A stretch of DNA of 64,000 nt from Chiloscyllium plagiosum (taxonomy: Eukaryota). The notes under the pieces are model-generated. The model worked only from the letters and a program-made list of their open reading frames with translations, made no database searches and was not told the origin of the DNA. Positions 187 through 31,779 of this stretch are shown in pieces. The position numbers were made by a program, and so were the translations under genes. Positions within the stretch are counted from its first letter, which is position 1. The number at the start of each line of letters is the position of its first letter. The stretch covers positions 28,932,556-28,996,555 of the forward strand of contig NC_057719.1 in NCBI RefSeq assembly GCF_004010195.1. Reading direction: 5' to 3'.

Positions 187-489
187 TTAGATTCCCTTCA
201 ATGTGGAAACAGGCCCTTTGGCCCAACCAGTCCACACCGACCCTCTGAAGAGTAACTCACCCAAACCCATTTCCCTTTGACTAATGCACCTAACTCTACG
301 GGCAATTTAGCATGACCAATTCACCTGGCCTGCACATCTTTGTGACTGTGGGAAGAAACCAGAGCACACCCACGCAGACACAGGGAGAATGTGCAAACTC
401 CACAGAGACAGTCACCCAAGGCTGGAATCAAACCTGGGACCCTGGTGCTGTAAGGCAGCAGTGCTAACCACTGAGCCACCATGCTACCC
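187..489 (-). mobile_element. tRNA-derived V-SINE (HE1-like)
   Basis: Minus strand shows an A box TGGCTCAGTGG, a B-box-like GGTTTGATTCC, the V-domain GGAGTTTGCACATTCTCCC and a CR1-type tail GGGCCTGTTTCCACA. Confidence 0.85.
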
Positions 490-569
490 TATGTGAAGGA
501 TGTAAAGAATGTAAAGGAATTCAAATAAAAAAAGACCTATGTCCATTGGATTAATGATCAAAATGAAGA

Positions 570-1360: not shown

Positions 1361-2486
1361 CTTAGAGTGAAGAGTCATTTGAGTTTGCAGAGATCTGATT
1401 ACAGTCAAAGAAGCTTGAACATGAATAAAATTAAAGTAGCTTGAACATAAGAAAAAGATAAAGCTGCTTGAAATAGAAATGGAAGCAGTTTTCGAATCAA
1501 TGAGAATTGAAAGGGAAATTAAAAAGCAGGAGATGGAGATGAAAAATCTTGATTTTTAGAAAGAAGAAAAAGAATGAGCAATTTAGGATAGAGAAAAGGA
1601 GAAAGAATTGGGAAAAGACCAGAGATGGAGTGATGCAGTCAAAAAAGGAACTTCAAAAGGACATAGTGATGAGGAAAATCCTGGTCATAATCTATAGTCC
1701 AGTAAGGAAATTTTTAAATTTATACAGGCCTAACCAAATTTTATGGAAAATAATTTGCAGGACATCCTTTATTATTTGACCAACTAGCAAAACAAATGAA
1801 GTGGCCAAAGGTAAACTGGACATTGCCATGCAAAGCAAATTCACAAGTAGAGCAAGTGAAATTTATACATCACTGTCAGAGCTGGTATCTAAGGATTATG
1901 GTGCTATCAAAAAGGCTATTCTGGGTATGTATGAGCTTTGTTTTGAAACATACAGGCAACAGTTTAGAAATTTGAGTAAGTAACCTGGGCAAACATATAT
2001 GGAATTTGACAGAATAAAGCAAACTATTTTTGACAAATGGATATGGACATTTGGAGTAAGTGCCACATAAGAAACTCAGAAAAAACATTTTCTAGAAATA
2101 TTTAAATGTTTATAACTTTTTAAAATTAGAATCCATGTTGAAGACCAGAGGGTTGCAATTGTTGGACAGGCAGCAGAAATGACTGACAATTATAAGCTGA
2201 TCCATAAAAGCAAACGTTTTTTCAGTCACCCCCACGAATTTGAAAAGGATAGTGGGTGTGTCAGTGAAGGGAGGCAAAGAGCCAGTGTAAAGAAAGGACA
2301 GCTGGGAATGCCCAAAAGGTCCACTCCTTAGATGAGGAAAAGGTGCTGACGGTTGAGGTGAAAATTGAATGCCAAAGTGTTTTCATTGTGATAAGATGGG
2401 AAACCTTCATTCAGAATACTGGAAGTTGTAAGGGAAACCCATGGGATTTATTGGAATTTGTAAGAGTGGAAAATAGTATGGATTAA

Positions 2487-2799
2487 GATTAGATTAGATT
2501 ACTTACAGTGTGGAAACAGGCCCTTCGGCCCAACAAGTCCACACCGACCCGCCGAAGCGCACCCACCCAGACCCATTCCCCTACGTTTACCCCTGCACCT
2601 AACACTACAGGCAATTTAGCGTAGCCAATTCACCTAACCTGCACATTTTTTGGATTGTGGGAGGAAACCGGAGCACCCGGAGGAAACCCACGCAGACATG
2701 GGGAGAATGTGCAAACGCCACACAGTCAGTCGCCTGAGGCTGGAATTGAACCCGGGTCTCTGGCGCTGTGAGGCAGCAGTGCTAACCACTGTGCCACCC
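2487..2799 (-). mobile_element. tRNA-derived V-SINE (HE1-like), relatively young copy
   Basis: GGTGGCACAGTGGTTAGCAC head, GGTTCAATTCC B box, V-domain GGGTTTCCTCCGGGTGCTCCGGTTTCCTCCCACA, (AATCT)n tail; CpGs retained. Confidence 0.9.
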
Positions 2800-2851
2800 G
2801 AAGACACCGCAAACCCTCACACAACCCTGCTAACCACACAAGCGCTTCACA

Positions 2852-2925
2852 TGGTCAGTGTGGGGATTGAACCCACGACCTTGTCGTTATTAGCACCACG
2901 CTCTAACCAGCTAAGCTAACTGACC
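2852..2925 (-). tRNA. tRNA-Ile(AAT) gene or retroposed tRNA copy (possible pseudogene)
   Basis: Minus strand GGTCAGT TA GCTT AGCTGGTTA GAGC G TGGTG CTAATAA CGACA AGGTC GTGGG TTCAATC CCCAC ACTGACC A (74 nt). Perfect acceptor and T stems, anticodon AAT, one G-A mismatch in the anticodon stem, no oligo-T terminator directly downstream. Confidence 0.85.
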
Positions 2926-3945
2926 AACGATTAAATTGTAGCTTTAACTGCAACTATAAAACTAAAGGTAAACACTACTGTAAGTGCAGGGAAGGTGAAT
3001 AAGGTAGATGACAGATATAAAGAGTTTTCATTGCCACCTTTTTCTTCAAGTTCTTCAGCTAAGCTCCTAACTATATTAAGAGACATAAGGTTACTCAAGC
3101 TCTTTTGCTGAAGAATGACATTGTTTTCTCTACAGAGGATGCAATGCAAGTCAAATGTTAGTAAATGGGATAAGTGGAGAGTGTACTTTGTTCTGTTTTA
3201 CAAAGTGCAATTTAAGTGTGACTTCATCTGAAACTGTAGTGGTAGGAATTGTTAAGAAATTACCTGTGAATGGAGTTGACTTACTCTTGGATAATAATTT
3301 GACAGGAATGAAATGTATAGGTTTGCTTATACTTACGGGAAGTTTGAATGAGTTTAAAGAGAGGGAACAGTTCCAAGAACAGGTTCCAAGTATTTTTCCA
3401 TTGTGAGTGGTGACCAGAGCATCAGCTATCAAAGTCTGTCACCAGAGATCAAAATGATAACATAAGCAGATATTAGTTTAGCTGAAACTTGCTTTGAGGA
3501 TGTGGATGATTCAAAAGAATTGTTTAATGTGTCTTTGCTAATTGTGACTCAGAAAGCAAAACTGGAAATAAGCATGTTCTTACAGGAACTCACACCAAAG
3601 CTGAGGTGGAAGGTGTTCCAGAGTGTTATTGCACTAAAAATGAAGTTCTGATGAGGAAGTGGAGACACTGTCAATGACGTGTGGATAAGGAATCAATGTT
3701 TGTTAATCAGATGGTGGTAACATCCAAATATCACAAGGACATATCACAAGCAGCATTTGAAATTCCTATGGCAGGACATGTGAAGATACAAAAAACCTTG
3801 AGCATTTTATCTGGCCAAGACCTTATAAGGATGTAATGCAGCTCTGTAAAACATACCATATAGTGTCAGGTAATGGGAAAACCTCAACATGTAATTAAAC
3901 TGTCGCCAGTTCTTGAAGAACCATTCAGTTGAGCATCAGTGGATT

Positions 3946-5346
3946 ATAGAACATAGAACATAGAAAATAGTACAGGCCCTTCAGCCCACGACGTTGTGCC
4001 GAGGATTAATCCTAACTAAAATAAAATAACCTAACCTACACTCCCCTCAATTCACTGCTGTCCATGTGCATGTCCAGCAGTCGCTAAAGTATGCCTAATG
4101 ACTCTGCTTCCTCCACTACTGCTGGCAACACATTCCATGCATTCACAACTCTCTGCGTAAAGAACCTATCTCTGACATCTCCTCTGTACCTTCCTCCTAA
4201 CACCTTAAAACTATGACCCCTCATGGCAGTCAATCCTGCCCTGAGGAAAACTCTCTGGCTATCGACTCTCTCCATCCCTCTCATTACATTGTATACCTCG
4301 ATCAGGTCACCTCTCTTCCTCCTCTCCAGAGAGAAAGGTTCGAGCTCAGTCAATCTCTCCTTGTAAGATAAGCCCTCCAGTCTAGGCAGCATCCTGGCAA
4401 ACCTTCTTTTTTTACCTCTTCAAAGCCTCTGTATCTTTCCTATAAGAGGGCTCCAGAACGGGACACAATATTCCAAATGTGGTCTCATCAGGATTTTGTA
4501 GAGCTGCAGCAAAACCTCACAGCTCTTAAACTCAATCCCCTATTAATGAAAGCCAAAACACCATATGCTTTCTTAACAACCCTATCCACTTAAGTAGCAA
4601 CTTTGAGGGAGCTATGCACTTGAACACTAAGATCCTGCTGTTCCTCCACACTGCCAAGAATCCTGTCTTTAATCCTATATTCAGCATTCAAGTTCGACCT
4701 TCCAAAATGCATCACTTCGCATTTATCCAGGTTGAACTCCATCTGCCATTTCTCCCAGTTCTTCATACTGTCAATGTCATGCTGTAGCCTGCAGTAGCCC
4801 TCGGTACTATCAACGGCACCTTCAACCTTTGTGTCATCGGCAAATTTACTAACCCACCCCTCAACCTCCTCATCTAAGTCATTTATTAAAACTACAAAGA
4901 GCAGAGGCCCAAGAACAGAGCCGTATGGGATGCCACTCACCACTAACCCCAGGCAGAATACTTTCCATCTACAACCACTCTCTGCTTTCTGTCAGCCAAC
5001 CAGTTCTGAATCCAGACAGCCAAATCTCTCTATGTCCCATAGCTCCTGACTTTATGAATGAGCCTCCAGTGGGGAATCTTATCAAATGCCTTGCTGAAGT
5101 CCATGTACACCACATCCACTGCTTGACCTTCATCAACCTGTCTCATTACCTCCTCAAAGAACTCAATAAGATTTGTGAGGCATGACCTGCCCCTCACAAA
5201 GCCATGCTGATTGCCTTTTATCACGCTGTGCTTTTCCAAATAGTCAGAAATCCTATCGCTCAGAATTCTTTCCAAAACCTTGCCGACCACAGACGTAAGA
5301 CTGACTGGTCTGTAATTGCCAGGGATTTCCCCATTCCCCTTCTTGA
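3946..5346 (-). mobile_element. 5'-truncated CR1 LINE (RT and 3' tail)
   Basis: [41 protein letters not shown] and FFTQRVVNAWN motifs; (TTCTATG)n tail at ~3946-3965. Confidence 0.92.
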
Positions 5347-6131
5347 GTTTTGAAATTTAGGGGATAGACATTGGGAAGATTTAATAACATTATTTAGAAA
5401 ATTCATGGATGTCTGCAGAGAAACAACAGGATGTACTATGTTAGCCAGATATCATGTAGATGTAGGGAATCAGTACTAATATAACACAGTCTTATCAGTT
5501 GAGCCCAGAAAAACAAATCCAGGTGGCAACAGAGAAACACATGTTAGAAAAATCACTTGATTGACTCTAACTAAAGCAGTTGCTGTTTATCAATGATGTT
5601 AGTTCCTACACTGAATGAGTCAACTAGATTCTGCATACATTACAGAAAAGAAAACTCAGGAACAGAAATAGATTCATATCAAATTCCTCAGTTAGAAGAT
5701 TGAATTGATTAGGTTGGCATTGCCAATGGACAATATCATTTATTTCTAAAATTGACTTATTAAATGGGTATTGTTGAGTACCATTAACATCAAAGGCTAA
5801 AGAGATAACAGCTTTGTTTCACTAATTGGGTCATGTCATTTGTCTTAAAAATGCAGTAACATTCCAAAGACTTATGAATCAAGTCATAGCTGAAGTGTCT
5901 ATCTCTGTAGTTTATTTAGATAATGTTGTAAGATACAGTAACGCTTGGGCAGAATATGTAAGAATGAGAAGACCTGTTTAAGCAATTACAATTAGCTGAC
6001 TTAGTAATAAACTTTACCAACAGTGAATTTGCAAAAGCAAAGATAAGATCATAGGGCAAGGGGAAGAGTTGTCAAGAACAGCAAAAGTGAAGGCTCAAAT
6101 AGAATTCCCTGTCCATAAAACTAAATGGGAA

Positions 6132-6480
6132 ATTTATTTATTTATGGGATGAAGGCATCACTGTCTAGGCCAACATTTATTGCCCATTACAGAGGACAGT
6201 TAAGAGTCGACCACATTGCTATGGGGATGGAGTCACATGAAGTCCAGACCAAGTAAGGAAGGCATTTCCTTCCCTAAAGGACATTAGTGAACAAGATGGG
6301 GGTTTTTTCTGACAATCGACAATGAATTCATGATCATCATTAGACTCTTAATTCCAGATTTTTATTGAACTCAAATTCCACCATCTGCCATGGTGGGATT
6401 GCTAACCCGGCTGTCAGAACATTACCTTGTACTCTGGATTAGCAGTCCAGCAATAATACCACTAGCTCATCACCTCTCCT
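6132..6480 (-). mobile_element. tRNA-derived SINE whose 3' tail matches the LINE at 62370-63062
   Basis: Minus-strand tail GGGCAATAAATGTTGGCCTAGACAGTGATGCC..CATCCCAT resembles the LINE tail GGCAATAAATGCTGGCCCAGCCAGCAACGCCCACATCCCA; tRNA-like head at 6380-6480. Confidence 0.7.
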
Positions 6481-7196
6481 AAAATCACAAGATTTTTGCA
6501 AGTATGTAAGTTTATTAGATATTTCTGCCAAACTTCAACAAAATAACTGTAACCATGACAGAATTTTTTGCAAAACAAAGATGGTATGGTCAGCAAAGTG
6601 TCAAGCAGCCTTTGAGAAACTAAAGGCCAACCCAATAAATGAATAAATCAGTGTTGGCCACCCCTGCCTTTGCAAAACATTTTAAAATGGCAATCAATAC
6701 TAGTGCTCTGGGGATAGGAGTAATCTTATTGCAAAGTGATGAACTGGGAACAGAGAAGCCAGTGTAGCGCATTCAAAGGGATTAAACATATATCAGAACA
6801 TGTGGAAAACAGACTTGAGGATTATTATTGGCTTTTCAAAATGTTTAAGTCTGTGTCCATCATGGCGCACTCTTCCCAATTAAGTTGAGGCACATGGAAG
6901 TAATTGTGTTGACACCTAATTTTTAGGTACATCTGCTGCTGTTTTTGGCATGCCTTGCTACATTCTTCATTGAATCTGGGTTGATCCTCTGTCATGTTGA
7001 TACATGTAAAGTGGAAGAAACACCAGGTCATGAGGTTACAGGTTGTGGTTGAATACAATTTCTTTGTTGTTTTTGGCCCACAGTGCCTCCTGGATTTCTA
7101 GTCTTTGCGAGATTTATTGAAATCAATTCCACACAGCACAGTGATGGGGCCAGACAATGTGGTCCTCAAGTGAAGACAGGACTTCATTTTCACAAG

Positions 7197-8820
7197 GGGG
7201 TCCTGGGGAGTGTTACTGAACAAATAGAAATTGGAGTGCAGGTTCATAATTCCTTGAAAGTGGAGTTGCAGGTAGATAGGATAGTGAAGAAGGCATTTGG
7301 TATTCTTGCTGTTATTGGTCAGTACATTGAATACTGGATTTGGGAAGTCATGTTGCAGCTGTACAGGGCATTGGTTAGGCCACTATTGGAATATTGTGTG
7401 CAATTCTGGTCTCCCTGCTATAGGAAGAATGCTGTGAAACTTGAAAGGGTTCAGAAAAGATATACAAATATTGGCCAGGATTGGTGGGTTTGAGCTGTAT
7501 GGAGAGGCTGAATAGACTGGGGCTATTTTCTCTGGAGCATCAAATGCTGAATGGTGACCTTATAGAGGTTTATAAAATCATAGAGTCATAGAGATGTACA
7601 GCATGGAGACAGACCCTTCGGTCCAACCCGTCCATGCCGACCAGATATCCCAACCCAATCTAGTCCCACATGCCAGCACCCAGCCCATATCCCTCCAAAC
7701 CCTTCCTATTCAAATACCCATCCAAATGCCTCTTAAATGTTGCAATTGTACTAGCCTCCACCACATCCTCTGGCAGCTCATTCCATACACATACCACCCT
7801 CTGGGTGAAAAAGTTGCCCCTTAGGACTCTTTTATATCTTTCCCCTCTCACCCTAAACCTATGCCCTCTAGTTCTGGACTCCCCGACCCCAGGGAAAAGA
7901 CTTTGTCTATTTATCCTATCTATGCCCCTCATAATTTTGTAAACCTCTATAAGGTCACCCCTCAGCCTCCGACGCTCCAGGGAAAACAGCCCCAGCCTGT
8001 TCAGCCTCTCCCTGTAGCTCAGATCCTCCAACCCTGGCAACATCCTTGTAAATCGTTTCTGAACCCTTTCAAGTTTCAGAACATCTTTCCGATAGGAAGG
8101 AGACCAGAATTGCACGCAATATTCCAACAGTGGCTAACCAATGTCCTGTACAGCCGCAACATGACCTCCCAACTCCTATACTCAATACACTGACCAATAA
8201 AGGAAAGCATACCAAATATCTTCTTCACTATCCTATCTCCCTGCGACTCCACTTTCAAGGAGCTTTGAACCTGCACTCCAAGGTCTCTTTGTTCAGCAAC
8301 ACTCCCTAGGATCTTACCATTAAGTGTATAAGTCCTGCTAAGATTTGCATTCCCAAAATGCAGTACCTCGCATTTATCTGAATTAAACTCCATCTGCCAC
8401 TTCTCAGCCCATTGGCCCATCTGGTTCAGATCCTGTTGTAATCTGAGGTAACCCTCTTCGCTGTCCATGAGGGACATGGATACGGTAAATAGACAAAGTC
8501 TTTTCCCCGGGGTGAGGAAGTCCAAAACTAGAGGGCATAAGTTTAAGGTGAGAGGGTAAGATTTAAAAGGGACCAAAGGGGCAATTTGCTCATGCAGAGG
8601 GTGATGTATTTATGAAATGATCTGCCAGAGGAAGTGATGGAGGCTGGTACAATTACAATATTTAAAAGACATTTGGATGGTGATATGAATTGGAAGGGTT
8701 TAGAGTGATATGGGCCAAATGCTGGCAAATGGGACTAAATTTATTGAGGATATTTGGTCTGCATGGACAAGTTGGACCAAAGTGTTATTTCCATGCTGTA
8801 TATCCCTCTGACTCTTAGAC
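7197..8820 (+). mobile_element. CR1 LINE 3' portion, split by an opposite-strand CR1
   Basis: LYRALVRPLLEYCVQFWSP up to 7577; resumes at 8467 (ATGAGGG...RTRGH) and runs to the tail near 8815. Confidence 0.88.
7578..8466 (-). mobile_element. 5'-truncated CR1 LINE nested in the CR1 above
   Basis: WAEKWQMEFNSDKCEVLHFG, EYCVQFWSPSYRKD and FFTQRVVCVWNELP motifs; (CTCTATGA)n tail at 7578-7593. Confidence 0.92.
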
Positions 8821-10385: not shown

Positions 10386-13300
10386 TATTTAAAATTTAAA
10401 TCTAAATTCATACTTTGTTGAATGATTTATTGTCACTTGCATTTTACAGTAAAATACTTGCAGATATTTAATGTTCCTTATGTAGTCCAATCATGAAAGC
10501 AGGCATTAAAACACAAAAATATTCCTATATCCCTTATAGTTCTTTTTACTATAGTAGAGTTAATATAAAGAATAAAACGTCTGGTTTCTAAACTATAAGG
10601 CATAACATTACCCTGAGATGTATTATATTAGCAAAGAAAGGTATCAATCGCATTAAAAAATTATGGTGACTTAGGGGGAAGAAGTTGATTTACAGCTTCT
10701 CAAATTGCACACTAACTTCCTGATGATAGGCTGTTCTCCCAGACGAATGAAGAAATAGGTAAACGTTTCAGTGAAAAGGAAAACTGTGTCCAGCGATTCC
10801 ATTTAATAGAGAAAATTGATGCCAGCGAGAGATATGTGAGTTGCTGATGGAATGTTTTACTGCTTTTTGCCAGCTGATCATTCCATTTAGCAGCGGTAGC
10901 AAATGCAAGGCAATATTAGCCCACAGGCTTTCCCAACATCTTGAAACAAGCAGCAGCTTTAAATGAGGTCGTCCCTCCAGCTTCTCGGGTTAAAAGAGGC
11001 GGGCCTGTAAAATGTGGTAGAGCCATTACAAGAAACCTGAGATCCATTCATCATGCACTCAAATCGCCCCATTGCATTTGGATTGATTAGAGACAAACGA
11101 TACCGTACAGTCCAGAGCACAGGAGCCGTGCCTACTGACTCCAAAACCTTTATCTCGCTTCTACATTTATGACTGTAACGAATGACTAAAAACGTATTCA
11201 TTTCTGTCGTAACTATTTTCTTTTGGCAGTTAGGAACTTGAATACATTCATTCCGAGAATGTTTGACAATGCTCCTGCGCCTTCGAACAGTTCACAGCCT
11301 TAAAAGGGTTTTATTAACGAAGCTGGTGTTTCCGAGTGTCACAATTGAAATGTTATAACGATTACCTCCATTTCAGTGCCGAGACATCATTTTAAGTGAT
11401 TTCTCAAGAATCGTTACAAAACCTTAAGTACTTAACAGGTTAGAAGACTTCGGTAACCTTCTTACAATTGATGTGCCGTACAGATTTCACTCTGAAAGAG
11501 AATGGTAAATGCTCATTGGTGAAGTTTACATCTCCTAAATCCATTAATTGATAAGCGCACGCAATAATTGTAGGTCATTAGGTTTTTTTTAGCCTTATCA
11601 CATTTCCACAGAGGCAGAATAAATCCAATCGTTGCTGCACGCGATTTTAATGGAGCTGTATGCTGTACAATAGTAACCAGTTCCTATTGTCTATCTAATA
11701 TACTTCTCTTCAATTTCCAATCAGTTAGAGATGGAAAGGAATGTGCAATTTTGCGCGGAATCTCTCTACTCACGTTTCTAAAAGGAAACCAATGGCGTGT
11801 GCTCGGTGAGACCTCCCTCTACTTCCCATTAAACTGCGCCACAACAAATCAACCTTCCTCAACCCTCATTTAAACGGAAAGCAGCAGCTAATTAACTCCA
11901 TCTTTCCAGACAAGCCGCACTATTTATTTAATGTCACACAACATTAGTATCATTCACACTTTGATCTTACTGAGCAGAATTCTCTCGCCGTTACAAAGAA
12001 TGTTTTATGAAACTCACCATCATAGTTGAGGCAGGGAACATGTGACCATTTTTTTGTCGAAAGCTGCGAATACCTGAATTCTTTATTTAATTGGGAAATA
12101 ATTTTGATAAAAGAGAACTGCAACTGAAATCATTGGACAATTGTTTATTATTTAACTGTTTCGCAATGTTCGTGGTCTCACCCATTGCAAAACAGCCCGA
12201 AAGTTTATGTTAATTGTTTTTCCAGGTGGAAAGTTTGAATTAAACATGTATGTTTATTGATTGCAACAGATATAAGATAGCATCGCTAGAGTAGGTTGCT
12301 TTAAGGTCAAGGTGGTTTCACACTTAAATTTGATATATCTTAACGCTTATAGGATTGCCCGTTACAGACTGGCCGACGAGCATTCTCATTGTACTCGAGG
12401 TTTATAGACTCTCGAGGCTGGTATATCTGCATTTTTAAATATCTGGTTTATTAATGTTTCTGGGAAGATGTTTACCATTGTATGTGACCTTTGCTGAAAG
12501 AACAAATCCAAATCATGTCCATTTTCCTGATGGAAGTCTGCTTGTATTCCTTGAGCTGCAGTTTTTGGATTCAATTCTAATATGCATGTATAAGCTGAGA
12601 CTGTTAAACGGTCATTGCAGACAGTTTGTCCACTGTAACTAAATCGTGAGGCGCTACTAAGTAGTTTGCGCCCAGTAACTACCTGCGATTGTTTTCGTTG
12701 CTGATTGCACTATTAGTCGGAGACAAAAAAAAGTAGGTTATACTGTATTTTTCTTCAAGACAGACAAACTAGCACTGGCTTAGAAGGATGATCCCTGTCC
12801 AAGATCTCCCAGGGCGCTCACAAACATTGTTTTTACAGGTGTTCAGAGGAATCACTAAAAGTGATTAAAGGTTTATTCTATTCCATGCTAATGGATTTGG
12901 TGAGGATTTAGATAACTTCAACAAACGGAATGAACTGCGTTTGTTAAACGTTTAAACTCGGAGCTGTATTTTTAAAGAAATCGTTTTTGAAAAAAAAATA
13001 AATCTGGGGCTTCTGTAAGAAATCCGAGTCTTTTAAAGAGAGAGGTGGCATTAGACCTCACTGAATTGAAGGAAACGTGACATGATTGTTCAAACTACAA
13101 AGGAATCAGAGCGTTTGAAAGGAGTTTCACCAACGAATTTTAGAAATCAATCTACACAGGTGGGTTCCGCAAAACCAAACTCTGACGGAGTGGAATTAGG
13201 CACTGATCCTTTGCTCAAGGGGGTAAATGCCAAATATTTAAGTCATTCATTTCCTGTTGTGTTTTTATAGCACAACTGCCCTGTTTTGGCGAGTGCAGAG

Positions 13301-16139
13301 TCTACTTGCCATTAACTTGACAGCTTGCTAACTTGAGAAACAAGAAAGCTTTTTAAAAAAAAAACTCGGGTATTTCATTGGAACAAATACCTGGAACTAT
13401 CACTTGGAATTTGCATTTTGATTGTGGGCATTGATTGCCGGTGGAGGACAAGCTGGAAGATAGACAATGACTTTACTCAATGACCACGCATGATTAAATG
13501 TGTCTGGAGGGCACCGGTTCGGGCGGGAGGAGGTGTGCGTTTTATTAAGTATAACTTATGCGAGGCTTTAACATTTCGTTTGCTATTGACCAAATTAAAG
13601 TGACCACTTCACACCGTGCCCTTTTTAAGAAATAAATTATTCGGCATTAATGACTAAAGACGTGATGCCTATCTATTGAATTCTATATAAGAAATAATCG
13701 AACTCCTTTAAGTATCTCTAAGATATTTTTCTATTCTTACCGAGCGTATGTAAAACAATGCACGAGGTTTCTCTTTTGACCCTGAAAAGACAATAAATAG
13801 ATTACCCTGGATGTTGTTTGCGGTATTATTTATTTATTAATAAAAACGTAAAGTGGACACCATGAACCCGGATCCATACTGGGACACTTGTCAATGTTGA
13901 ACAATCCAAACAAAATTTGGAGTAAATCCTCTGGATTTAGAAGCAGATGGAATAGACCAGTTTAACATAATCTTCCCCACTCCGCTAATGCCAATTATTT
14001 CAATGTAATTATATTTGGTTTTGTTTTTAGCTTCTAGGAGAATAATACATTTAAATCGTAGTTGGAGTTTCCTCGTGCTGTTCTGAACTGGGACGCTAGT
14101 CCGCGGTTTAGAAATACAAAGAACTTGCATTGAGAGAGCGTCTTTCACGACCTCAAGTTGTTTCGTGGAATTTAATAGTTAACAGGATACCTTGGCGTGT
14201 AGGCACTTCTAGTGTTCAGGGAATGTAGGTGGGCAGACACACCTAATCATATCACAACATCTCAGACACTCATCCAAGTTTGGAAACTAACTGTACCGCA
14301 GTTTATATGCGCGAGCGATTTCAGTGATTTACGGTAGATCCTGACTTGGAGAGAGGGTTAAGGATCGGTTCCGGTCCCCAAACAGCTGCCTTGTCAATAA
14401 GGATCTGCCACAAGTGGAGACATCCCTGCTGTCAGGAGCCAGCCCTGCTCCCTAACCCTATCTCGCACCTCCTAGGCTCTAAAATAAGGAAAGAAAAGCA
14501 GCCACTGAGCCACATAGCAGGGCAATGCCTTTTCCCTTCTAATTTTGTATCTGATGGAATCAACAATTCTAAATAAAGACACGTATCTGACAGATCACCG
14601 CTTAATCCCTTTATCAGTCAAGCTCTCCTCTCCCATTCGGAGCGCCCGAGCAGTCTTGATTATCATCGCAGATAAAGAAGTGTAACCGCTTCAGTGTTCT
14701 TCCAATTAATTGTTAAAGACTAGCGTTTAAAGATAGTTTTAGGTAATTAACGCCGCCAACTGTTTGCATTGTCATTTCATGAAAACTAACAGGTTAATCC
14801 GATAACAAATGTACAGTATCAATTGTGACTAAAAATTGGATGGCTTTCCCTCTGAGTTATAGGCACAATTTTCCCCCAGCCCTCCTTAAGTTAGGCCTGA
14901 AAGAAGTTTCTGCTATAATATTTTTGCTTGGGACATTTTTAATTCTGTAAATAATCAGCGTAAATTGAATGTCATAACACAATTCATAACACAAGAACAA
15001 ATTTAATACGAATCACATTTCTGAGAGAAAATAAAAGATTAAAAACCTTGTTTTTGTCTGATGCACATGTTCATGTTCACTACTATGGCAATGATTAAAC
15101 CAAGCGCTCATCACATCATGAACTTTAACTGTAGCTAAGAATGAGACTGAAACATGGAAAATTGCATCAAATCCCCCCAGTAACTGCGATGCTGCCCATT
15201 ATAATTCCTCACTCATCCAGTAAATGCCTACCTGAGGTCTGGGACAGGTTTACTCTGATTTCCTGGCCCGTGTCGAATCCATACTCAAGCAGCGACGGCA
15301 TTCACTCCACATCATGATGGTAGATGAAGAGTGTACAGACCCATCAGAATTAGTCCATATATTAATGTATCCTTTGCCCTCTACATCAGACACAGGTTAC
15401 AGGGGTTCTTAGGTATTTCTCTATCATATAATTTCAAAATGTGATAAAAGTACCCGAATGACAAGATTAATTGGTTTGGGATGCTTTTGAGCAATGTAGA
15501 AACCAAAGCGCTGAGGGTGTAAACCTCTGCAGAAGGGACACTCAAAGGGGTCATGTTTCCGAAAATGTCCTGTTTCTTCTCGTTGCCGAACGGCAAATCA
15601 GATTGCAAGGCATCCCTTTTGAAGAATTCATCCGAGGTTTGAAATGAAAATGTTCGGTACTTAAAAAAGCGCACTTCCAACATTAAAAGGAGCATTTTAA
15701 TTATGTTATGAAAAGCAATTTAAATTAGTATTTTTGCCCCTGTCCAGAAGAACTGTTAGGAATAGGCTACCATTTGTAAACAGAGTATACAAGGTTGTAT
15801 AAATTAATTTCAGAGCTAGTATTCCCCGTGTTGTTGTATGTTAAAGTTTCAGTCAAAGGTTGTGTTTATACACTTTTCAAGCTCAACTCACTGCTATTCA
15901 CTACCTAAAGCAAAACACTCAAAAGAGAAAGCAGATGTGCTGCCATAGATCAGCTGCCGTTTACCTTTGCACACGATTTTCCTAAAAAGAAATAATAGAT
16001 ATTTTGGAAAATAATAATACAAGTGGAACGCTTCAGTCACCTCTCAGTGACAATAAGCTGCTGTAAAATAATGAGCTTTGTTTTAAGAAGGACGGTCAAT
16101 TAGAAATAATAATGAACTGTGGCCTAAGTTGGAGCGATA

Positions 16140-16410
16140 AAATTTGCATATTGAGTGACCCCTCCAAAAAATGCAAATAGGAAGTTGATTCCTGAGAGGA
16201 ATACATTGAGCTCTTCAAACCGAGTCGAAAGGTAATTGATTTGTAATGTAAAGGCGACCAATCCCGCAGGTGACATTTGAGAAGCTCTCGGGTTTCAGAC
16301 CTGACGTGTTTTCCAGAGTCCTTCATTTAGGAAGACTTTGCTCTTGTCTCTTGCAGTGGTAGGAGGGAAGTGCAGCCAATCAGCGGCCGGTCATCACTAT
16401 TAATGCGCAC
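16140..16410 (+). promoter_or_regulatory. Putative SIX1 proximal promoter
   Basis: NF-Y-type GCAGCCAATCAG (CCAAT 16376-16380), TATA-like TATTAAT 16398-16404, a second CCAAT 16259-16263, inverted octamers ATTTGCAT 16142-16149 and ATGCAAAT 16171-16178, all 190-450 nt upstream of the ATG. Confidence 0.6.
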
Positions 16411-16591
16411 TTACTAGGATGGGAACAGTATACTGCAGCCAGCCCCTAACAGGAGCGCTTTAGAGTATCAGCCGCTGGGTATCGGCGACTTCTGTCTGGA
16501 TCTGTTAACCCTTCCTGGCCTCAGCGATCTTTGTTGTTTTCTTTGTTTTTGGCGATCAGATTGTGGATACTACACCCTGACTCGCGAGTGA

Positions 16592-18407
<1,816 letters not shown>

Positions 18408-18711
18408 GGAAAACACTGAAAACACAAACACCTCTGGCAATAAACAAAACCAGTTGTCCCCTATCAACCGCAGTAAAAACCTGATGTCGAGTTCCGACGA
18501 GGAATTATCACCGCCCCAGAGCCCAGATCACTGCTCCGCGAGTCCTGTCTTACTGCTGCCAGGGAGCGTGAATCAATCTGTGGATTCCACCTTCTCTCTT
18601 CACGGCCTGAGCTCGTCACCAGGCGGCCACGCTGGCCCGGTCCATCCGCATGGACTCCAGGACTCACTGCTCGGCACTCTCACATCCAGCCTGGTCGACC
18701 TGGGATCGTAA
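18408..18711 (+). CDS. SIX1: SIX homeobox 1, coding exon 2 (C-terminal region)
   Basis: Pyrimidine-rich acceptor ...tgttccaatAG|G at 18406-18407. The frame continues (R)[18 protein letters not shown]...[15 protein letters not shown]...[18 protein letters not shown], with TAA ending at 18711. [20 protein letters not shown] and TSSLVDLGS are SIX1-type rather than SIX2-type. Spliced CDS is 864 nt = 287 aa + stop. Confidence 0.96.
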
Positions 18712-19261
18712 AAGAACAAATCCTCAGTGGACAGCCGAACGGTGAACTGATCAGCTACTCCGGTACTGTGCTGTGTAAATAATTGAACAGTCCTGTCCAT
18801 GTTATGGAATTTCAACTGATGGTACTTAATCTGTGAAAAAATAAGCGAGACCGCTGTCGTTCATTAGAGGAAAACAAACCGTCTTCATGAACTGCTGAGA
18901 GGCTTCATTTCTCACTTAATGCTCTTCAAATCTTTACGCTCTCCCCACTGCACAAAAAGCGTTCCAAATGCAACATTTGGCGGGCTGATCCTGTTTCTGC
19001 CAGGTTAATGCATCTGTCAGAATCAACCTGGATTTATCTCTCGTTTTCCATCTGTTTGCGTTCCTTGCAATTAACTGATTGCGAATCTGAAGTAAGGCAT
19101 CGAGTAGGACGAACGGGCTATAACTGAGGTAACAGCCGAGAGAGACAGAGAGAAAGAATAACTCCACTGAATATCAGGCAGAGTTCAGGCACAGAAACGA
19201 CTCCAAGTTTACAGTACGTTGTCACCAGTGGTGTATGGAGAGTAACATGGAAGTAGTTTAT

Positions 19262-19267
19262 AATAAA
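19262..19267 (+). terminator. Candidate SIX1 polyadenylation signal AATAAA
   Basis: AATAAA about 550 nt after the stop codon, followed by GT/T-rich sequence (ttatgttgtctccttttc). Confidence 0.45.
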
Positions 19268-22200
19268 ATCCAAACATGTGAAAAGCACGTGCTTATGTTG
19301 TCTCCTTTTCAGATTTTGGAAAAAAATATATTTAGAAGTTGGTTTATTTAAGAAAATGGTGTTGGAAATTGTTATTGGATGAGGCTCTCCGAAGCTCGCA
19401 GTTCAGGCGAAACTCGGCAATATTAATGTGCTGTTATATTGTCAATATCTAGCACGAGGACAACTAAGCAACGCCCAGATGTTGATTCCCTATTGTCTCG
19501 CCTGACATCTACAAATTCCCCTCTGCTATATCCCGGTGAGTAACCGTTACCTTATGGGAGCAAAGTAATATGATGCTGAATTTCCCTCTTCAATTCCAGA
19601 TAGCAAGTGTTGAGTTTACATCAAATCGGGAATCCATTTCGATGGGGCATTAGGAACAATAATTCGGCATTTTCCGAGTGCGCTTTCTGAGAGAGAAAAA
19701 AATTGTTTTGAACTTAGTCGCCGGAAAATGCAAGTCGCTACCCCTTTCCAAAAATGATCTGGAGGTGTCGGTGCTGGACTGGGGTGCACAAAGTTTTTTT
19801 TAAAAATCACAACATCAGGTCCAACAGATTTATTTGGAAGCATTGGCTTTCGGAGCCCTCTCCAAATAGATTGTGTTCTGTCTTCTGAATATTTTCAGAC
19901 AGTCTGCTTTACAAACATAATCAAATCCCTGAAATCTTGTTCAATTCTTGCCTCTGCCCCGAACGGGATATTTGTCCCAAAACGTTAAAGTTGGGTCCCA
20001 GCTTGTCAGATCCGCCTGCCATGGGTTTCAAAGAGGTGTAGCGATTGTATAACCCATCACGTTCGTAACTGAGGAGGAATCATTCACAGCTCTCCAACAG
20101 CTTAAAGATAAAGCAATCTCCAAGTCAACTGGCAGGTCATTTTAAAATTTCTATTTCGGATCCCCAACTTCCTTGCATTTTCTTTACATATGTTGTGGAG
20201 TAAAATGCCACAACAACAAATAATTCACCAACTGCAGGGAAAAAGATGCAGGGAAAAAATCGATAAACTGAAATAAAATGATCTATATATTTAGAACAAT
20301 GACAAGCACTCGTTAGAAGGTTCCCCGTTGCTTTATTCGAGTGTCGTGTTGCTAATATCCTTTGATAGTATATGGTTCTGGTTTACTGAAGATTGCAGAA
20401 TGTTTATTCTGTATGTTTCGGGCCATGGAAATCTCACCCCCTCTGGAGGACAGACTCTCACTCGGGATTAACTCAGTTTATGCAAAATTCCTGTGTAAAA
20501 TATACGTCCGTTTCGCAAGGATGACTTTAGTGAAGTCGTCCTAATTGTTACTTAGGATCGAAAGAGAAAGTTAGCTTATACGCGTAAGAGACGAGCATAT
20601 TTACAACGCGTCATTTCTCTTCGGCCCTCTCCGATTCTTGGTGATGCAATTAATAGAGACGGCAGCATAAAGAGCTACTGTGACCAACACCATCACTTCC
20701 CAGTAGATGTTGGCGGAATGGCAACTTTATGACAACTTTAGTAGGTGGGGGGAGGGGAGTAAGATGACTGAAGCGATGATGGGATGGATCTTTACAAAGA
20801 TTTTAAACAGTTTATCAATTTTGCAAGCTTATTTTACTTAACAAGCTTCGAAGAAACCTTCAACAATATAGCCACTACTCCCACCTCGTGTCAACACATT
20901 TCTATTTGTCCCTAGCTTCCATGTTGGGGTTTTCTCTTTTTAAGAATACGTGAAAATATGTTTTTGAACAGATTTGTTTTCATTGCTTTTTCTTTCATTG
21001 GGCCACTTGAAAGATTTGCATTGGGTTTTAACACGGATTTCTGGTCAAATGAGTTAAAGCAACCCAGGAGGATGGCGAAGCCAATTCAGGAGTTCATTGC
21101 AGACGCTCTACATCAAACGGATATTTCAATGTTGGGACTAACCGCTGGAGACCTTTACCTTTACTTTTCCTATAGGTTGTGCTTTAATATCTTTCACTGC
21201 AAGTGTTAAGAAATCGTAGCATCACGATGGCCCGCTCCTGGGTGACTTTGATCTTGTTACACTCGGGGCATTTTATTGTCAGTAATCCTGAAATCGCAGC
21301 TCCAACAGTAAAGCGCCCCATGCCCCAACGGCCACGAAAAGACATTCGGTTTTGGTCGAGTTTTCTTCTACATATAAAATAAACACACGACTGGCCTCCA
21401 GACACTCTTCGCTGGAAACTAAAAAGGCCTTCTATGAGATGAGGGTAATTGTTTTGAACAGCTCGAGTTTGGAGAGAACTGAGGATTTCCTGGCGTTAAT
21501 GTGAACCAGCCGCTGCCCTGCACTGCGCCTGTTGAATGTGGAGCAGATTTTGGCAAATATTACAGGGATTCAATTCAGGCTTTTGTGTTTTTAGAAGCAC
21601 CTCAGCGCTGATTTCAAATTTGTTTTCTTTACATTTTAAGCGTGCTCACAAAAATTAGATTCTTTATTTAAATTCGCCAACAGTGCTTATGTTTTTCTAT
21701 AGCCCCCAAGTCGCGGCCTTTGGCAGGAGTAATTAGCATGCTGTAGCTAATTGAATTTTGTTTCTAAATAAAAGGGCAATGTCTATTTCTATGGTCCATC
21801 CCAGAATGTAACGGGGGCAAGTTTAATTCTTTGGTCGGAATCACTCTCATTTGGCAAATTTTATAAATTATTTCCTTCAGCTCGAAGATTGGCTTGCATC
21901 TATGGTTTGAATTATCAGAAATACAAAAATGGCTGTTTGAAATGCAAAACAGTGCCAAAACCGAATGATAAAGTATGCCTGTAGAAAACATGTTTGAAGG
22001 AAACGTGTTTGATTAATGCAGATGCGTCTTGTAAAGCCCATTTCAAAATATGGCTGTCATCGAACTGCAATTTTTAAGATCCGGTTGAAAATTGCGAGGA
22101 AAGTCCGCTGGGAAATAGACAACAGTGTCTGATAGACGTCAAACAAACCTCCGGCCCAGTATATAATGCAGCTTTGGCCCTATTGCACGAAATGGTGACA

Positions 22201-24223
22201 AAACTACAGTCAGTAAAAAGGACATAGAACAGCGAGGGAGTATGTTCAAATAGCAATCGCAATAAAGGTGACATTGGAGAGAATATCTGTTGACTTCCGA
22301 CATACTTGAGAAGGTTAACACGTTTTTTGAGTTGAATGCTATTTGCAAGTCATAACTGTTTTGAAACATTTGTATAAATGCTTTCCAAAACTTCAGGACC
22401 AAAGTGAAGATTGCTCCTTCAAGAATCCTCATCTTTATCGATACATGAAACGTGGATTATTGTCAGGCCATTGCAGTCTGTACTCCATGCACATAAATAT
22501 GCAAGTCACTGCTGTATCACAAAGAGCAGATTGCTGGTTGGTCTAGCATGGAAAACAGGAGCTACCATCGGTTTCAGAACAATCATCACCTTGTTTGCCT
22601 TATTCTTCTGTTTACCAATTGATCTCCTGCAGTAGCGACTGTCAGTGATTTGGGGCCTGGATCTCCCGTGTGTATTACCTGCACCGAATTTCCAACACTG
22701 TCTCCCACCAAGATTTTAAACTTGACTCGCCAAGGCTTCGTTTTTCCAGAGGACAGTCGGATCAGGCTTCGGGCCTGATCGCTAATATCAGACAGGACGA
22801 GTTGATGCTTTTTATGTGAAGTTGTTTGTGGTAGTTTGGAAGCTGTGTCTGAGAGCTTTTCTCGAGGTCCTGTCATCTCGTCAGCTCTTACAGCCATTTT
22901 CAGTGTGTCCTTTGGCGATGTCAATCCTCCGTTCCGCAACTATGTTTCTCTCCTGTCTGTGATTTCTCTCTCTGTACATATCCACCTTTGTGTTTCTGGC
23001 TAGTTGTGTGTGTTTTTTTTAGCGTTTGAACCGTGCCTCAGTCTGCCTAGACAGCTTCTTGCATTGCAGCTTGATAATGGGGTAACGGGGAACCGCTTTA
23101 TTTCAGATATTTTTGCCACGTGGTTGGCCAGTATTTTGCTGCAATGTGTTTGAACAAAATCTGCAGCAAGTAAACGTTGTGTGCAATGAGAATGCAGAAA
23201 TGAAATCGTTTAGGTAAAACGAAAGGAGGCAATTAACCAGTGAGGAATAAACTTGGCGAACACTTTGAGAGAATTAACTGATGAGTGGGACTGACAATAA
23301 GACAACGGTATTTTATTCAACAATTAATACCATTAAATTCACCTTGGTATTGCTAATGCAAAAAATATGCAGCGGTATCATTAAACCAGACGTTTAATTA
23401 GAGGTTTTAATGAATGCGATCTGGCGGGACACGTATTGCGATCACGTGATTGAGCAAGTGTCCATATACCGAGGAGTAATGCCACAAGTTCTCATAAGCC
23501 AGGAGATAGGGTATTTCTTACAAAATCAACGTTTGCCTTTCATTGCATAATTAAATATTGGACGGTCCTTTAACGAGTGGAGGTAGCCGTGCTACAGCCG
23601 ACACAATGCTCAGTAACTGAATGATTAACTTATTTGAAATGTAAGGCCAGACAGGAGCGGCTTGTACCCCATGCGGACAGGAGAGGCAGCGTCCTCAGCT
23701 GATGGGAAAATAACAGCAAAACATTCTCAAAAAGAATTTTTAAGAAGTTGTTTGTAATGAATGAAATGATTTGTTGTTGCTGCTCGTAAAAAAAGTTTTT
23801 CAATGCAGGAAAAGGGGCAATCAAAACGAAGGTGTTGAAGGGTGATTTATGATTTATGTTTCATAAGTAGATGCACTAAATCACAGCAACAAAACCACCA
23901 AGGTCAACCAGCCTGTTGGGATACCTGAATTACTGCTTAATGCCTGGTTCTACACCAACAGTCTCGGCTGCTTTTAGCAGCGTCTTATTTGAACAAATGT
24001 TCAGTTAAAGGGGCAGCTAATCGCTGCGGATCAGCAATGAACTTCCCTCAATGCCGTCGCTGCAGTTAGAATCCAATAATAAAATAACGGATCCCCAGCT
24101 GCTCCGAAAGTAACGATGTTCCTTCCTGTATCAGTAACGGATGAGTGCCATGCCCACAACAGTTATTTCTATCTACCCTTGGCACCCGTCGGTTGCAGAT
24201 ATTGTGTCATCACATGTTGGAAA

Positions 24224-24308
24224 TGTGTTGCTGGAAAAGCGCAGCAGGTCAGGCAGCATCCAGGGAACAGGAGAATCGACGTTTCGGGCATAAGCCCTTC
24301 TTCAGGAA
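24224..24308 (-). mobile_element. Penelope-derived short insertion with hammerhead motif
   Basis: Minus strand CTGAAGA A GGGC TTAT GCCC GAAA CG TC, followed by the Penelope terminal sequence also seen at 48130-48190. Confidence 0.75.
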
Positions 24309-27300
24309 GGCCCTCATCACATGTTGCCCAAAGCAACCGAGCGATTAAAGCGGGAATGACTGCAGAGCGCTGGCAAGCCGAGCGGTCGCTTGAATGTGAG
24401 GGCAGAAGACTCAGCCCCAGCCCCTGCAGCCATGCGGCAGGTCAGGGTGCGTGTTGGGGCTGCGGGGTTATTGTGTGACCATGGCGAACCTATGATCTCG
24501 CCATTTAGACACAGACGCGCACTCTTCCCGCATAAATAGTGGTCCCTGTAACTAGATCCTGGCCTTATGTACAGCAAGGGTTGAGCGGCTTATTTCTTCC
24601 GGAAATTGGTCTTCAAGGTATTATCACGGTGTAGCGGCGGTGAATGTGGAGGCGTTTTACACAATGTGATTTCGAATTGTAAGATCAGAAAGCGGTGATA
24701 ACTGCTCGGTTCCAACGCGGTACCAGTGTGGTGCGGTTGAACATACACCTTGCAGCTCCCCGGAGTCACACAAAGTGTGACCTGGCTCCCAGGTGGTCGG
24801 TCCTGATCAACGTACCACTGAAGTAAAGGCAAGCTTGAAAATGTACCCCGGTCAGAGCTGTCTTCATGAATAAGTTCAGATCAGATATCCGTCACTTGCT
24901 CTGGTGACCTTGCTCTCGCTTTAATCGGGCTGTGCCGGGGCTGTACAAAAATATCTGCAAAACAGCACAAGTGCCTCTTCATTCATGGGATAAAATGGAG
25001 GGGTCGGGAGGGAGAAGGTAGCGTTTCCCTTTCGCCCTTCTTCTTGGTTTTCCGGGAAATCAAAGAGTATGCAATTTCCCGATCTTTTACTTTCCGTACT
25101 TGAAATATCGATTTTTTTGTGTGTGTGAAAAAATACATGAGCCGTGAGCAAGCTGTAATTTGAGGCGAGATGGTACCGCAGAGAGACACAGGAGTGCAGT
25201 GGAGCTTCAAATGTCATAGAGCAACAAAGACATTTAACTCTTCTCAGAGACAAAGTAGCTGCAATGTGTGTAAAACTGGGCTTTCGTTAATCCTCATTTG
25301 TGGCGGTAACACCGGGGAAAGAGTTTAAAAAGGCGTTACCGCAAATGTGTCCGCTTTTACTCACAACTGACCAGTGGAAATCTCCAATCTGCGGGAGACT
25401 TAATTAACTACATTGGGCAGTAAATAACAAACATTCGGCTAATGGTTTGGGACAGGGCTCTTTCGGAAAACAGGTAGATTAGATGTTTTAAAGGGCTGCA
25501 CATGAACATCGTCTTAGCCCCATGATAGAATGCTTCAGGGAACACTTGACAGAAACATACAGCCTGTCTGCTCGCTCTCAATTTGAAAATCCAAAAGGTG
25601 AAGCGGAAGGTTTAATTGGCGAAGTGCCAGTTACATTAAAATTAGAATTTACTTTGACGTGCCAGCCTCTGGGTGAGTGCATTCGGTATTGATTTAAAGG
25701 GTGTTAATGGGAATATACTTGATCAAAATCCTTAGTGAGAAAAGGAGCATTGTTATGAGGGTGAGGTGCACTCGTTACATAGAGAACCTAAACATTTCTG
25801 CAACTCAAAATGATCTGTCTCTATGCAGAAGGAATTACTGTACCTCTGTCCACATATTCTGCCAGACATCCTGACATTCTCCAGCACTTTCTGTTTTAAT
25901 TTCTATTTATAGTGACATACTAAGGACAACACCCTTAACATCAGAAACGCATTGCAAGCTGCATATCCAGTTTAGTGCAATGCCTGTTACTATGTTATTC
26001 ATTCGTGAAAGTAGTTGAGTGTGGGATTTACATCTGTATCTATTGTGGTTCACTGTTTTACTGTGATTCAGTTCAAAATTGCCCACAGTTCAGTCAATGT
26101 TACAGAGTAGACTTCCTCAGACATGCTGAATGTCGCAGAACAAAATTCTGAACTTCGACTCACTTCAAATGCGAGAATAAACTTTGTTTGCTGAGGTACT
26201 CAATCAATCAGCAATTGTTGCTAACGTTTCCGAGACGACCAATTAATAATCAGAGCGAATCCGAACCCCAGCATGCATGGTAAACAGCATACTTAGAAGA
26301 GTGGTCTGTTTTGGACCCATTTTTACTTAGCAGCCCCTTTGCCTAGTTGGATTTGGCCAGCGAGTTAAATTTTCATTTTCTATCTGGCGGGGTTTTAAAG
26401 CCAAGAAGCAACCTTGTACTGGGGAAAAAAAAAATCTGAATTAGGCTGCATTTTCATAAGTATGTATTATTCCGAAGGAAGGGCCTCAAAAAAGGACAAC
26501 ATTGCGTCAAAACTATGTAGGAAGTTAAAAAATGAAGCGGCCACTGATTTGATGCAAAGATTGTACTAAGGTCTCCACTGCATAAAGAAGTGAAATTATA
26601 TCCTTGTCTGATCAACTAAATGCGACAAAAAGTGTGCACTTTCAAAACCAATATTCTTACGATGTTATTTTCACAAAGGATTTATTGAAAATCGGTGCTA
26701 TTTGTAATCGCTGTTTTTTTTATGAATGGCCAACTTTTTAAAAACACGACAGATATTGACTTACATTTGATGTATGCATCTGTCTTAAAGAACTCAAAAA
26801 AAGGGGAAGAGAAGGGATAGTGTTCACTTACCAGCATTTTAAAAAGAGGAAACAAGGGACAAGCTAAATCATTATTACTACCTGTTCTTACCGTGAGCGA
26901 TCACCTGTTAAAAGGTCATGAATAACAGATAGATCTCCATCTCCTTTTCTTAAAAAAAGGGCCATTTGTTCAGTGACAGCTGATTGACAGGCTCTGAAAC
27001 ACGAGCTCGTGGGTCTGGCTGATTTGAGGATAAAACTCTGGATGTCCCCTCAAACATTTCAGGAAATGAAAGTTGTAACTCGATCCGTTCAGCCAACATC
27101 TCCCGGAGCAAACACAAAGACTGACAGGAACCTACCCGGATTATTCTGCAGCTAGATGGCGGAGACAAAACAGCCGTCACATTGAGCAGAGAGCTGGCAG
27201 CCTGCTCCCACATTTATTAGAAATGTCTGTCTAAGCAGCCCTTTAAATGGGTCAACATTTTCGTAAGTGTACAATAAGCACTTTTCATCCCAAAAATAAC

Positions 27301-30300: not shown

Positions 30301-30671
30301 AAGAGGGAGACAGCATTAAGGGACTCATTCTCGAGCTCTCTCAACAAGCTTGCACAGGCGAGTTACCGAATGGCCTCCCTCTCTGATCTAAGACCCTAGG
30401 ATTGTTTTTAATGGGTTTCTTTTAGTCGGGTAGCTAGAATGTTGTCGCTTAGGGTTCTGGACTGCACTTTCAGAATCTTGATTTGCTTTGCCCGTGTTAT
30501 TTTCTCTTTCCCACTTACAACGGTATCGAAGACTCCAGAATATTCAACATCGTCAACAGGGACTTTTACTCTGGATTAACCTTGCACGTCATCTTTAAAA
30601 CATGCCTTACAGCAACAGAGACTCCGCTATCCAGAGGGATTGTTGTCGGTTAGTCTTTTAACAGACAGATG

Positions 30672-30685
30672 GTGCCATCTCGTGG
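30672..30685 (-). promoter_or_regulatory. CTCF-like binding motif
   Basis: Minus strand reads CCACGAGATGGCAC against consensus CCASYAGRKGGCRS (1 mismatch). Lies at the 3' edge of the transposon-poor domain. Confidence 0.55.
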
Positions 30686-30719
30686 TTTGCTCGGTAATCA
30701 CAGACAGGGCGCACTCTTA

Positions 30720-30850
30720 AAAAATCACACAACACCAGGCTTAGTCCAGCAGGTTTATTCGGAAGCACTGGTCTTCGGAGCGCTGCTCCTTCATCAGGCG
30801 TATCCGTAACCAACTTTATACATCCCAGTTCAACACCGCCATTTCCAAAT
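30720..30850 (-). mobile_element. Short repeat (probably Penelope-derived, second family) with hammerhead-like motif; partial copy at 19801-19860
   Basis: aaaatcacacaacaccagg...gtcc..cag.tttatt.ggaagca is shared by both copies. Minus strand reads CTGATGA A GGAGC AGC GCTCC GAAG. Confidence 0.6.
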
Positions 30851-31779
30851 CACACTCAACGTGTAATCAAGCTTGAACCCTGCAAGTTAACGAAAATTTA
30901 TGCGTGTAACGAGCATCCCGTTTGACTCATGTCTTCTTTCGTACCCCCATGAGTGTCCTTACATCAACACATACGAAATAAAATGTCTTAAATTGTGTTC
31001 AATATATGCAAAAATATATCCAATCAACTTAAAAAAATGAATCCTCCATAGGTTTCTGATGGAAAGTTTTGGATTTTAACACTGGATTTTTAACAGCATT
31101 TTATTTACAAAAGCATTGAGTATTGTTAATCAACCGGTTGAAGTACATTTGCTGGCCAAGCGAGACTTGAACCCAGACTTCACAAGCAGGGACCACTACC
31201 ACTGCACTACACAGCATTGTATACTTAATAATTACTTCGTGAACTTTGTATACTTAATAATCAGTGCACTTAAAGAAGTCGGAATTAATTATCTTTGACC
31301 TTAGGTGGTATGTCATTAAGAGAGTATTATTGTTATAGTTTTGTCACAATCAATGTACCTAACACAGTTAATGTGTGATTTATTAATTGTGTTAAGCATA
31401 ATGTAGAACACTTAGGCTAAATGCATGGGGTGAATTAAGTATTGTGAATCCAGGAATTGATGGAAAACGATTGGGATTTGCTAGGAACAGGCTATTCAGC
31501 TCCTCAAGTCTACTTTCTATTTAAGCAGATGTTCATACTTCAGTTTCATTAACCCACATTTGATCCCTGTCTCTCTACAATTTTGACTTATTTCAGTTTT
31601 GAACACTTGAGATGTGTCCTTTCCAAGATGAGAACTTTATTCCTTCACTGCTCTTAGTGTGAAAAACTGGTTCCTGATTTTTTAGATTGTCTTCTAAATT
31701 GTCAAGCTGTAATTTTCAGATTCTGGCCTCTTGTTCTTAATTTTCCACAGCCAAGTCTGGACAATCCCACTCAGATAAA

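Follow-up and report, generated by a model that had tools for sequence, protein, structure and literature searches.

How did a copy of a tRNA-Ile(AAT) gene come to stand immediately ahead of a SINE, in the middle of a decayed Gypsy element, on the minus strand of a 64-kb stretch of shark DNA (here called the window)? CR1-type LINE enzymes should ignore tRNAs, and stringent LINEs copy only RNAs that carry their own tail. Because this tail is required, tRNAs can be retroposed by such LINEs only through hitch-hiking. The preliminary description of the locus had listed a short leader, a 74-nt tRNA, a 52-nt linker, a SINE ending in (AATCT)n and GATTAA flanks, and reading of both strands finds all of them in place. 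On the plus strand GATTAA occupies both sides of the block (2481-2486 and 2929-2934), and 448 nt lie between the two copies. On the minus strand, from 5′ to 3′, the order is TTAATC (2934-2929), GTT, tRNA, linker, SINE and TTAATC (2486-2481), with the following parts:

2929-2934, minus strand: target-site duplication, 5′ copy, 6 bp, TTAATC on the element strand (duplication search)
2926-2928, minus strand: leader of 3 nt, GTT, presumably the 5′ leader of a pre-tRNA or untemplated bases (sequence reading)
2852-2925, minus strand: tRNA-Ile(AAT) copy of 74 nt without a CCA tail, probably a pseudogene (ARAGORN, Rfam, stem pairing)
2800-2851, minus strand: linker of 52 nt, G/T-rich, terminator-free and ending in TCTTC, the putative 3′ trailer of the source tRNA gene
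2487-2799, minus strand: young SINE of 313 nt with 14 CpG kept and a head that lacks one 8-nt near-repeat
2504-2549, minus strand: SINE tail segment resembling a LINE 3′ end (80-86% identity to LINE copies in the window)
2487-2501, minus strand: (AATCT)3 tail of the SINE
2481-2486, minus strand: target-site duplication, 3′ copy, running on from the tail repeat

About 14 kb downstream of the chimera, an open frame at 16592-17158 (plus strand) with the Pfam domains SIX1_SD and homeodomain represents the first exon of a SIX-family gene, which we take to be SIX1; it lies inside a CpG-rich stretch of roughly 12000-32000.

The junctions of the block are unlikely to be an assembly slip. A word search of sequencing runs (24 runs listed, 20 with part of the query and 6 with half or more, shares below 0.2 being disregarded) identified four runs, which come from two samples of a single study and contain 0.82-0.86 of the 22 words sampled from 2740-2960; these figures are word shares and not alignments, and the window itself may derive from one of the two. 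Since only 74 of the 191 possible 31-mers sit wholly inside the SINE head or the tRNA, words from the junctions, the linker or the flanks are very probably among those present in the reads. Shares of 0.23-0.27 in organisms B, C and D and of 0.27-0.55 in four further samples of organism A are uninformative on copy number or polymorphism, because a divergence of 4% alone leaves 28% of 31-mers.

The surroundings of the block proved to be a Gypsy element, as had been proposed, and more precisely a decayed Gmr1-like Ty3/Gypsy element that is interrupted between its zinc knuckle and its protease:

1400-6850, ends approximate, plus strand: decayed Gmr1-like Ty3/Gypsy coding region (HMMER, Pfam, frames)
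near 2372-2428, plus strand: zinc knuckle of the host
from about 3070, plus strand: protease-like part of the host
near 3700, plus strand: integrase zinc finger of the host

This copy has accumulated many stops and frameshifts, and its recognisable parts are a SCAN-type gag, the zinc knuckle, the protease-like part, the integrase zinc finger, reverse transcriptase (RT) and RNase H. A HMMER search with the gag-like piece 1780-1980 returned 88 proteins; a SCAN domain was found in nine of the ten homologues scanned, and several homologues carry the integrase ahead of RT. Mapped back to the plus strand, homologues cover about 1400-2450, 3100-3950, 5400-6100 and 6500-6700, and inside the chimeric block no host homologue matched at E <0.01. 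Pfam recognised Integrase_H2C2 weakly at 3678-3833 and RT_RNaseH_2 at 6639-6764, while 10 of 17 short pieces gave nothing and three more gave matches at chance level. Gmr1-like elements are described with the order SCAN-protease-integrase-RT/RNase H (bioRxiv 10.1101/2025.03.03.638093), and the host combines a SCAN-type gag with the order protease, integrase, RT and RNase H. Two word-index protein searches returned no host homologue; one of the six homologues looked up is a sea cucumber protein. The integrase region of the same host also contains a 5′-truncated LINE (about 3946-5345, minus strand) that ends in (ATAGAAC)n as read on the plus strand and has Pfam RVT_1 matches in two of its upstream pieces.

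If the linker were a piece of this host, the tRNA and the SINE would be two independent insertions 52 bp apart. Such a reading is very improbable. The composition of the linker lies beyond the host range: it has 22 C on the plus strand, where overlapping 52-nt windows of the host, 3,091 in all, contain no more than 16, and its GC content is reached by only four of these windows. Comparison with the host flanks gave no match, 897-988 of 1,000 shuffles scoring equally well. Without the block, 82 codons separate the zinc knuckle from the protease motif, a distance that would rise to about 100 with the linker added, exceeding 18 of the 19 measurable homologues (62-98 codons); this is a weak test, with a variable spacer that could be measured in 19 of 88 homologues (34 have the knuckle and 19 of those the motif), and composition is the stronger evidence against a host-derived linker. 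What speaks for the host is this same variability of the spacer, together with the fact that no close homologue could be aligned across the junction, where the best score of 39 was similar to scores inside the insert and none was convincing, and no empty site came to light. The lack of a duplication around the tRNA alone counts further against it.

The longest duplication found by searching the flanks is the 6-nt repeat that encloses the whole block; the SINE alone is flanked by 4 nt (TCTT), and the tRNA alone by no repeat of at least 4 nt. A 6-nt match between flanks is expected by chance in 2.7-5.0% of cases (20,000 random flanks), whereas TCTT, which lies one base before the SINE head and again at the tail end, has a chance of 4-12%. 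The 3′ copy of GATTAA is continuous with the (AATCT)n tail, so part of the match is priming microhomology. LINEs that start from a simple repeat are reported to leave duplications of 1-9 bp, and a duplication that resembles the tail repeat is what would be expected of them (PMC4476161). The linker is unlike the Gypsy host, no separate duplication flanks the tRNA, and the best one surrounds the whole block; together these points make co-insertion the best reading: the whole block is likely one insertion, a single event being the simpler account. Joint retroposition had been proposed from the start in the form of a Pol III read-through transcript; the co-insertion part of that proposal is supported by the enclosing 6-nt duplication, but the transcript part is not established, since a template switch leads to the same anatomy.

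The tRNA copy was recognised by ARAGORN as tRNA-Ile(aat), the sole tRNA in the window, and by Rfam (RF00005) with 57.6 bits (gathering score 29), the only Rfam match there. Its acceptor and T stems are intact, as first described, with 7/7 and 5/5 Watson-Crick pairs. For comparison, a motif scan of metagenome contigs yielded at least 120 tRNA-Ile(AAT) loci of unidentified eukaryotes, not sharks, 116 of them with the full 74 nt and 47 distinct in sequence, of which 36 were kept as in-register references. The anticodon stem contains a G.A mismatch at 30:42, a pair that is G-C in all 36 in-register references among the matches listed, and the pair 13:23 is U.G where the same 36 have C-G; the letters at positions 5, 13 and 42 occur in none of the 47 distinct references listed. 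Among 40 references listed, the closest is identical at 67 of 74 positions, and with this identity and its 448 nt the block falls within the SINEBase limits of <1 kb and at least 60% tRNA identity over 60 nt. Three of five CpG sites are kept. A functional tRNA gene would have all its cloverleaf stems paired and an oligo-T terminator close behind it; here the pair 30:42 is broken and the 52-nt linker holds no such terminator. Because an otherwise invariant pair of the anticodon stem is broken, the tRNA copy is probably now a pseudogene, and the suggestion that such events disperse near-intact tRNA genes was overstated. The presence of leader and trailer and the absence of CCA point to an unprocessed template. 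None of the at least 120 metagenome loci carries the linker or the SINE at E <0.38.

The claim that the linker is terminator-free was borne out: it contains no T4 and none of the five non-canonical terminator patterns tested (T3VT2, T2VT3, T3VT, TVT3 and T2VT2). Random sequences of 52 nt often lack T4 as well (56-72%), but among the reference tRNA-Ile(AAT) loci listed (metagenome eukaryotes, not sharks) T4 follows within 52 nt in 91 of 99 and is absent from 8. Many human tRNA genes likewise have no T4 within 50 bp and produce long trailers, and read-through by Pol III is common there (PMC3141230). The linker ends in TCTT followed by C, one T short of TCT3, a sequence with a termination of about 50% when assayed with human Pol III (PMC3141230). 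This ending only leans towards the end of a released transcript, being a weak, post hoc observation that 12-22% of shuffles match. Elsewhere in the window the linker does not recur, its best score of 23 falling inside the null range of 21-31, and it shows no secondary structure (z = 0.32). A 10-nt identity links its positions 2828-2837 to the A-box region of the SINE (2780-2789), but 146 of 1,000 shuffles do as well; an alignment with cheap gaps places colinear SINE-like patches in the linker, equalled by 15, 19, 34 and 372 of 1,000 shuffles for the four SINE copies under a post hoc scoring. If these patches were real, the linker could be a SINE remnant instead of a trailer, for which they are only suggestive.

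The SINE that follows belongs to a family with four copies in the window. One older copy (187-490, minus strand) retains its head in full, has lost an internal stretch and is A-rich at its end, and two older ones stand head to tail at 46577-47186 (plus strand), the first 5′-truncated and the second starting at the tail of the first. The SINE of the chimera is 81-86% identical to these three, and it is the youngest of the four, because 14 of the 19 inferred CpG sites survive in it and only 3 of 19 in each other copy; with the sites inferred from the other three copies alone, it keeps 5 of 10. The CpG ages of the SINE (14/19 or 5/10) and of the tRNA (3/5) are compatible. Before the A box the head has one 8-nt near-repeat where two are present in both of the other copies whose head is intact, and it is either clipped or minus one repeat. 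A and B box-like motifs can be seen by eye in the head, which stays below the Rfam tRNA threshold. Neither tRNA nor linker stands upstream of any of the three other copies in the window, and no duplication of at least 5 nt was found around them.

The last 46 nt before the tail of the SINE match LINE-like 3′ ends at 7597-7642, 48514-48559 and 34262-34297 with 80-86% identity over 36-46 nt, and the SINE thus has its 3′ tail in common with a LINE of the same genome. LINE 3′ ends with this segment were seen at 7578-7642, 48514-48582, 34262-34297 and 3946-3988, with repeat units of 8 or 7 nt where the SINE has 5; the exact partner LINE was not found among the LINE 3′ ends in the window. For two C-terminal pieces Pfam returned no family, and one LINE-like frame encloses an assembly gap (313 N, 55020-55332). 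The SINE is putatively HE1, a V-SINE, and the LINEs with matching 3′ ends presumably belong to the CR1 clade. The shared tail is in line with the pairing of the V-SINE HE1 with the LINE HER1 in sharks and rays (PMC3747384; PMC4824008), and the central domain of V-SINEs is given as about 80 bp (PMC4824008).

The best explanation, tentative and a little short of an even chance, is a one-off chimeric retrocopy produced when reverse transcription switched template, leaving SINE RNA for a pre-tRNA with a long trailer. The CR1-type LINE enzyme that serves the SINE would bind the SINE RNA through its LINE-like tail and prime at a TTAATC site resembling the (AATCT)n tail, by target-primed reverse transcription. 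After copying the SINE to about its 5′ end, it would jump to an unprocessed tRNA-Ile transcript, entering at the 3′ end of its 52-nt trailer, and copy this pre-tRNA up to its leader, and the insertion would be closed with a 6-bp duplication. The switch is favoured by the precedent of the U6-SINE chimeras of platypus and lizard (PMC4476161) and of the passerine PittSINE (PMC5729268), and supported by the absence of the extension from all three other SINE copies in the window. Against it, a long-trailer template is atypical to judge from the reference genes listed, although such human genes exist, and almost all of the platypus chimeras described carry a 5′-truncated small RNA, where here the tRNA is complete (PMC4476161). 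The three private tRNA letters could mean that the template was already decayed or that it was a SINE-like master, the 4-nt repeat that flanks just the SINE is not very likely to be accidental, and the SINE-like patches, if real, would replace the trailer by a SINE remnant. The TCTT end of the linker adds little in its favour. Nor does the anatomy tell a jump from read-through, which would leave the same product.

In the latter case a SINE would have inserted 52 nt behind a tRNA-Ile gene and ahead of its terminator, and the joint Pol III RNA would have been retroposed once or a few times by means of the SINE tail. This is unlikely, yet it fits the anatomy equally well and needs no jump: a complete tRNA with its leader is what a Pol III start would give, the transcribed strand of the whole block has no run of at least four T, the linker lacks the non-canonical patterns too, and Pol III read-through with long trailers is common in human (PMC3141230). 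For the 5′ extensions of SINEU-2, an origin from a SINE copy inside another gene was likewise considered (PMC4494074). It requires, however, that a SINE had earlier landed no more than about 50 nt from a tRNA gene, and the linker stops where a terminator could begin, a weak point against it. The same joint structure could also belong to an amplified composite subfamily of tRNA-Ile and V-SINE, whatever the origin of its master, which is improbable. Complex SINEs make up 13% of the 175 SINEBase families (PMC3531059), the private but stem-keeping tRNA changes and the shortened SINE head could be subfamily marks, and the SINE part is both younger than the three other copies and diverged from them; but those three copies carry neither tRNA nor linker, and no such family was found in the open-access literature. 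Two stacked insertions are more doubtful still. A tailless pre-tRNA retrocopy (leader, tRNA and a trailer ending in TT) would have arrived first with the TTAATC duplication, and a SINE, attracted by the tail-like TAATC, would later have entered at its 3′ junction with the TCTT duplication. The position of TCTT fits this order, stacked copies of the SINE do exist at 46577-47186 in the window, and human pre-tRNA retropseudogenes have been reported (PMC4476161). On the other hand, the second hit must have fallen within a few bases at a density of only four SINE copies per 64 kb, one extra C breaks the register of TCTT, the CpG ages of tRNA and SINE are compatible, and processed pseudogenes are described as rare in genomes with stringent LINEs (PMC4476161).

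Comparison with known systems places the block among familiar elements and sets it apart from each of them. The chimeric retrocopies U6-Mon-1 of platypus and U6-AnolisSINE2 of anole were formed with SINEs of stringent LINEs, and 1-9 bp duplications were seen in 72.5% of 40 platypus chimeras (PMC4476161). Like the block, they have a Pol III small RNA 5′ of such a SINE, a simple-repeat tail and a short duplication around the whole; here the cellular small RNA also stands 5′ of the SINE on the same strand, with the 52-nt linker in between. Unlike them, as far as they are described, the block contains a complete, unprocessed tRNA with leader and trailer and presumably had a CR1-type partner. For PittSINE/TguSINE1 of passerines, CR1-driven reverse transcription has been proposed to have moved from SINE RNA to a tRNA (PMC5729268), so that the proposed switch under CR1 and the tRNA at the 5′ end are common to both; in PittSINE the old head gave way to the new tRNA and a family arose, whereas in the block the old head stays, a trailer intervenes and one copy is known. 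SINEU-2 of crocodilians also has extra 5′ sequence and the same ambiguity between a template switch and a master inside another sequence, but its heads are described as snRNA-derived and its extensions are common to several copies (PMC4494074). HE1 shares with the SINE of the chimera a body and a tail common to LINE 3′ ends of the same genome, and probably a tRNA-type head; its descriptions in PMC3747384 and PMC4824008 mention no tRNA-Ile 5′ extension in the parts available. Complex (dimeric) SINEs as defined in SINEBase join tRNA-like units, and a family comprises at least 100 interspersed copies (PMC3531059). The block, known from one copy, likewise lines up a tRNA and a putatively tRNA-like Pol III head, with a spacer between them.

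Twin SINE and the t-SINE of colugo are complex tRNA SINEs of this dimeric type. Chimeras of small RNAs with SINEs and complex SINEs are already established kinds of elements. What is particular to the block is a complete pre-tRNA with its trailer before a SINE that is almost entire, and this opens the mechanism to testing. The open-access literature contained no report of a shark SINE extended by tRNA-Ile; subscription papers, Repbase, Dfam and the SINEBase supplement may hold one. There is a small chance that sharks have a composite SINE, so far undescribed and still amplifying, to which the block belongs and in which a complete tRNA-Ile gene with a terminator-free trailer would serve as an additional Pol III head ahead of a V-SINE. 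If the block is a single dead copy, it matters little beyond this locus. If it were one of a family, sharks would have a further SINE that gives rise to false tRNA-Ile annotations, CR1-type enzymes would scatter whole tRNA cassettes with A and B boxes through the genome, in this instance about 14 kb upstream of a SIX-family homeobox exon, and SINE dimerisation would have been caught at birth. An important aspect of the locus is that 52 nt of the presumed 3′ flank were kept, so that switch and read-through become decidable, which is untestable in head swaps such as PittSINE. The insertion is a clean record of the hitch-hiking step that has been proposed for the origin of new SINE heads and of dimeric SINEs.
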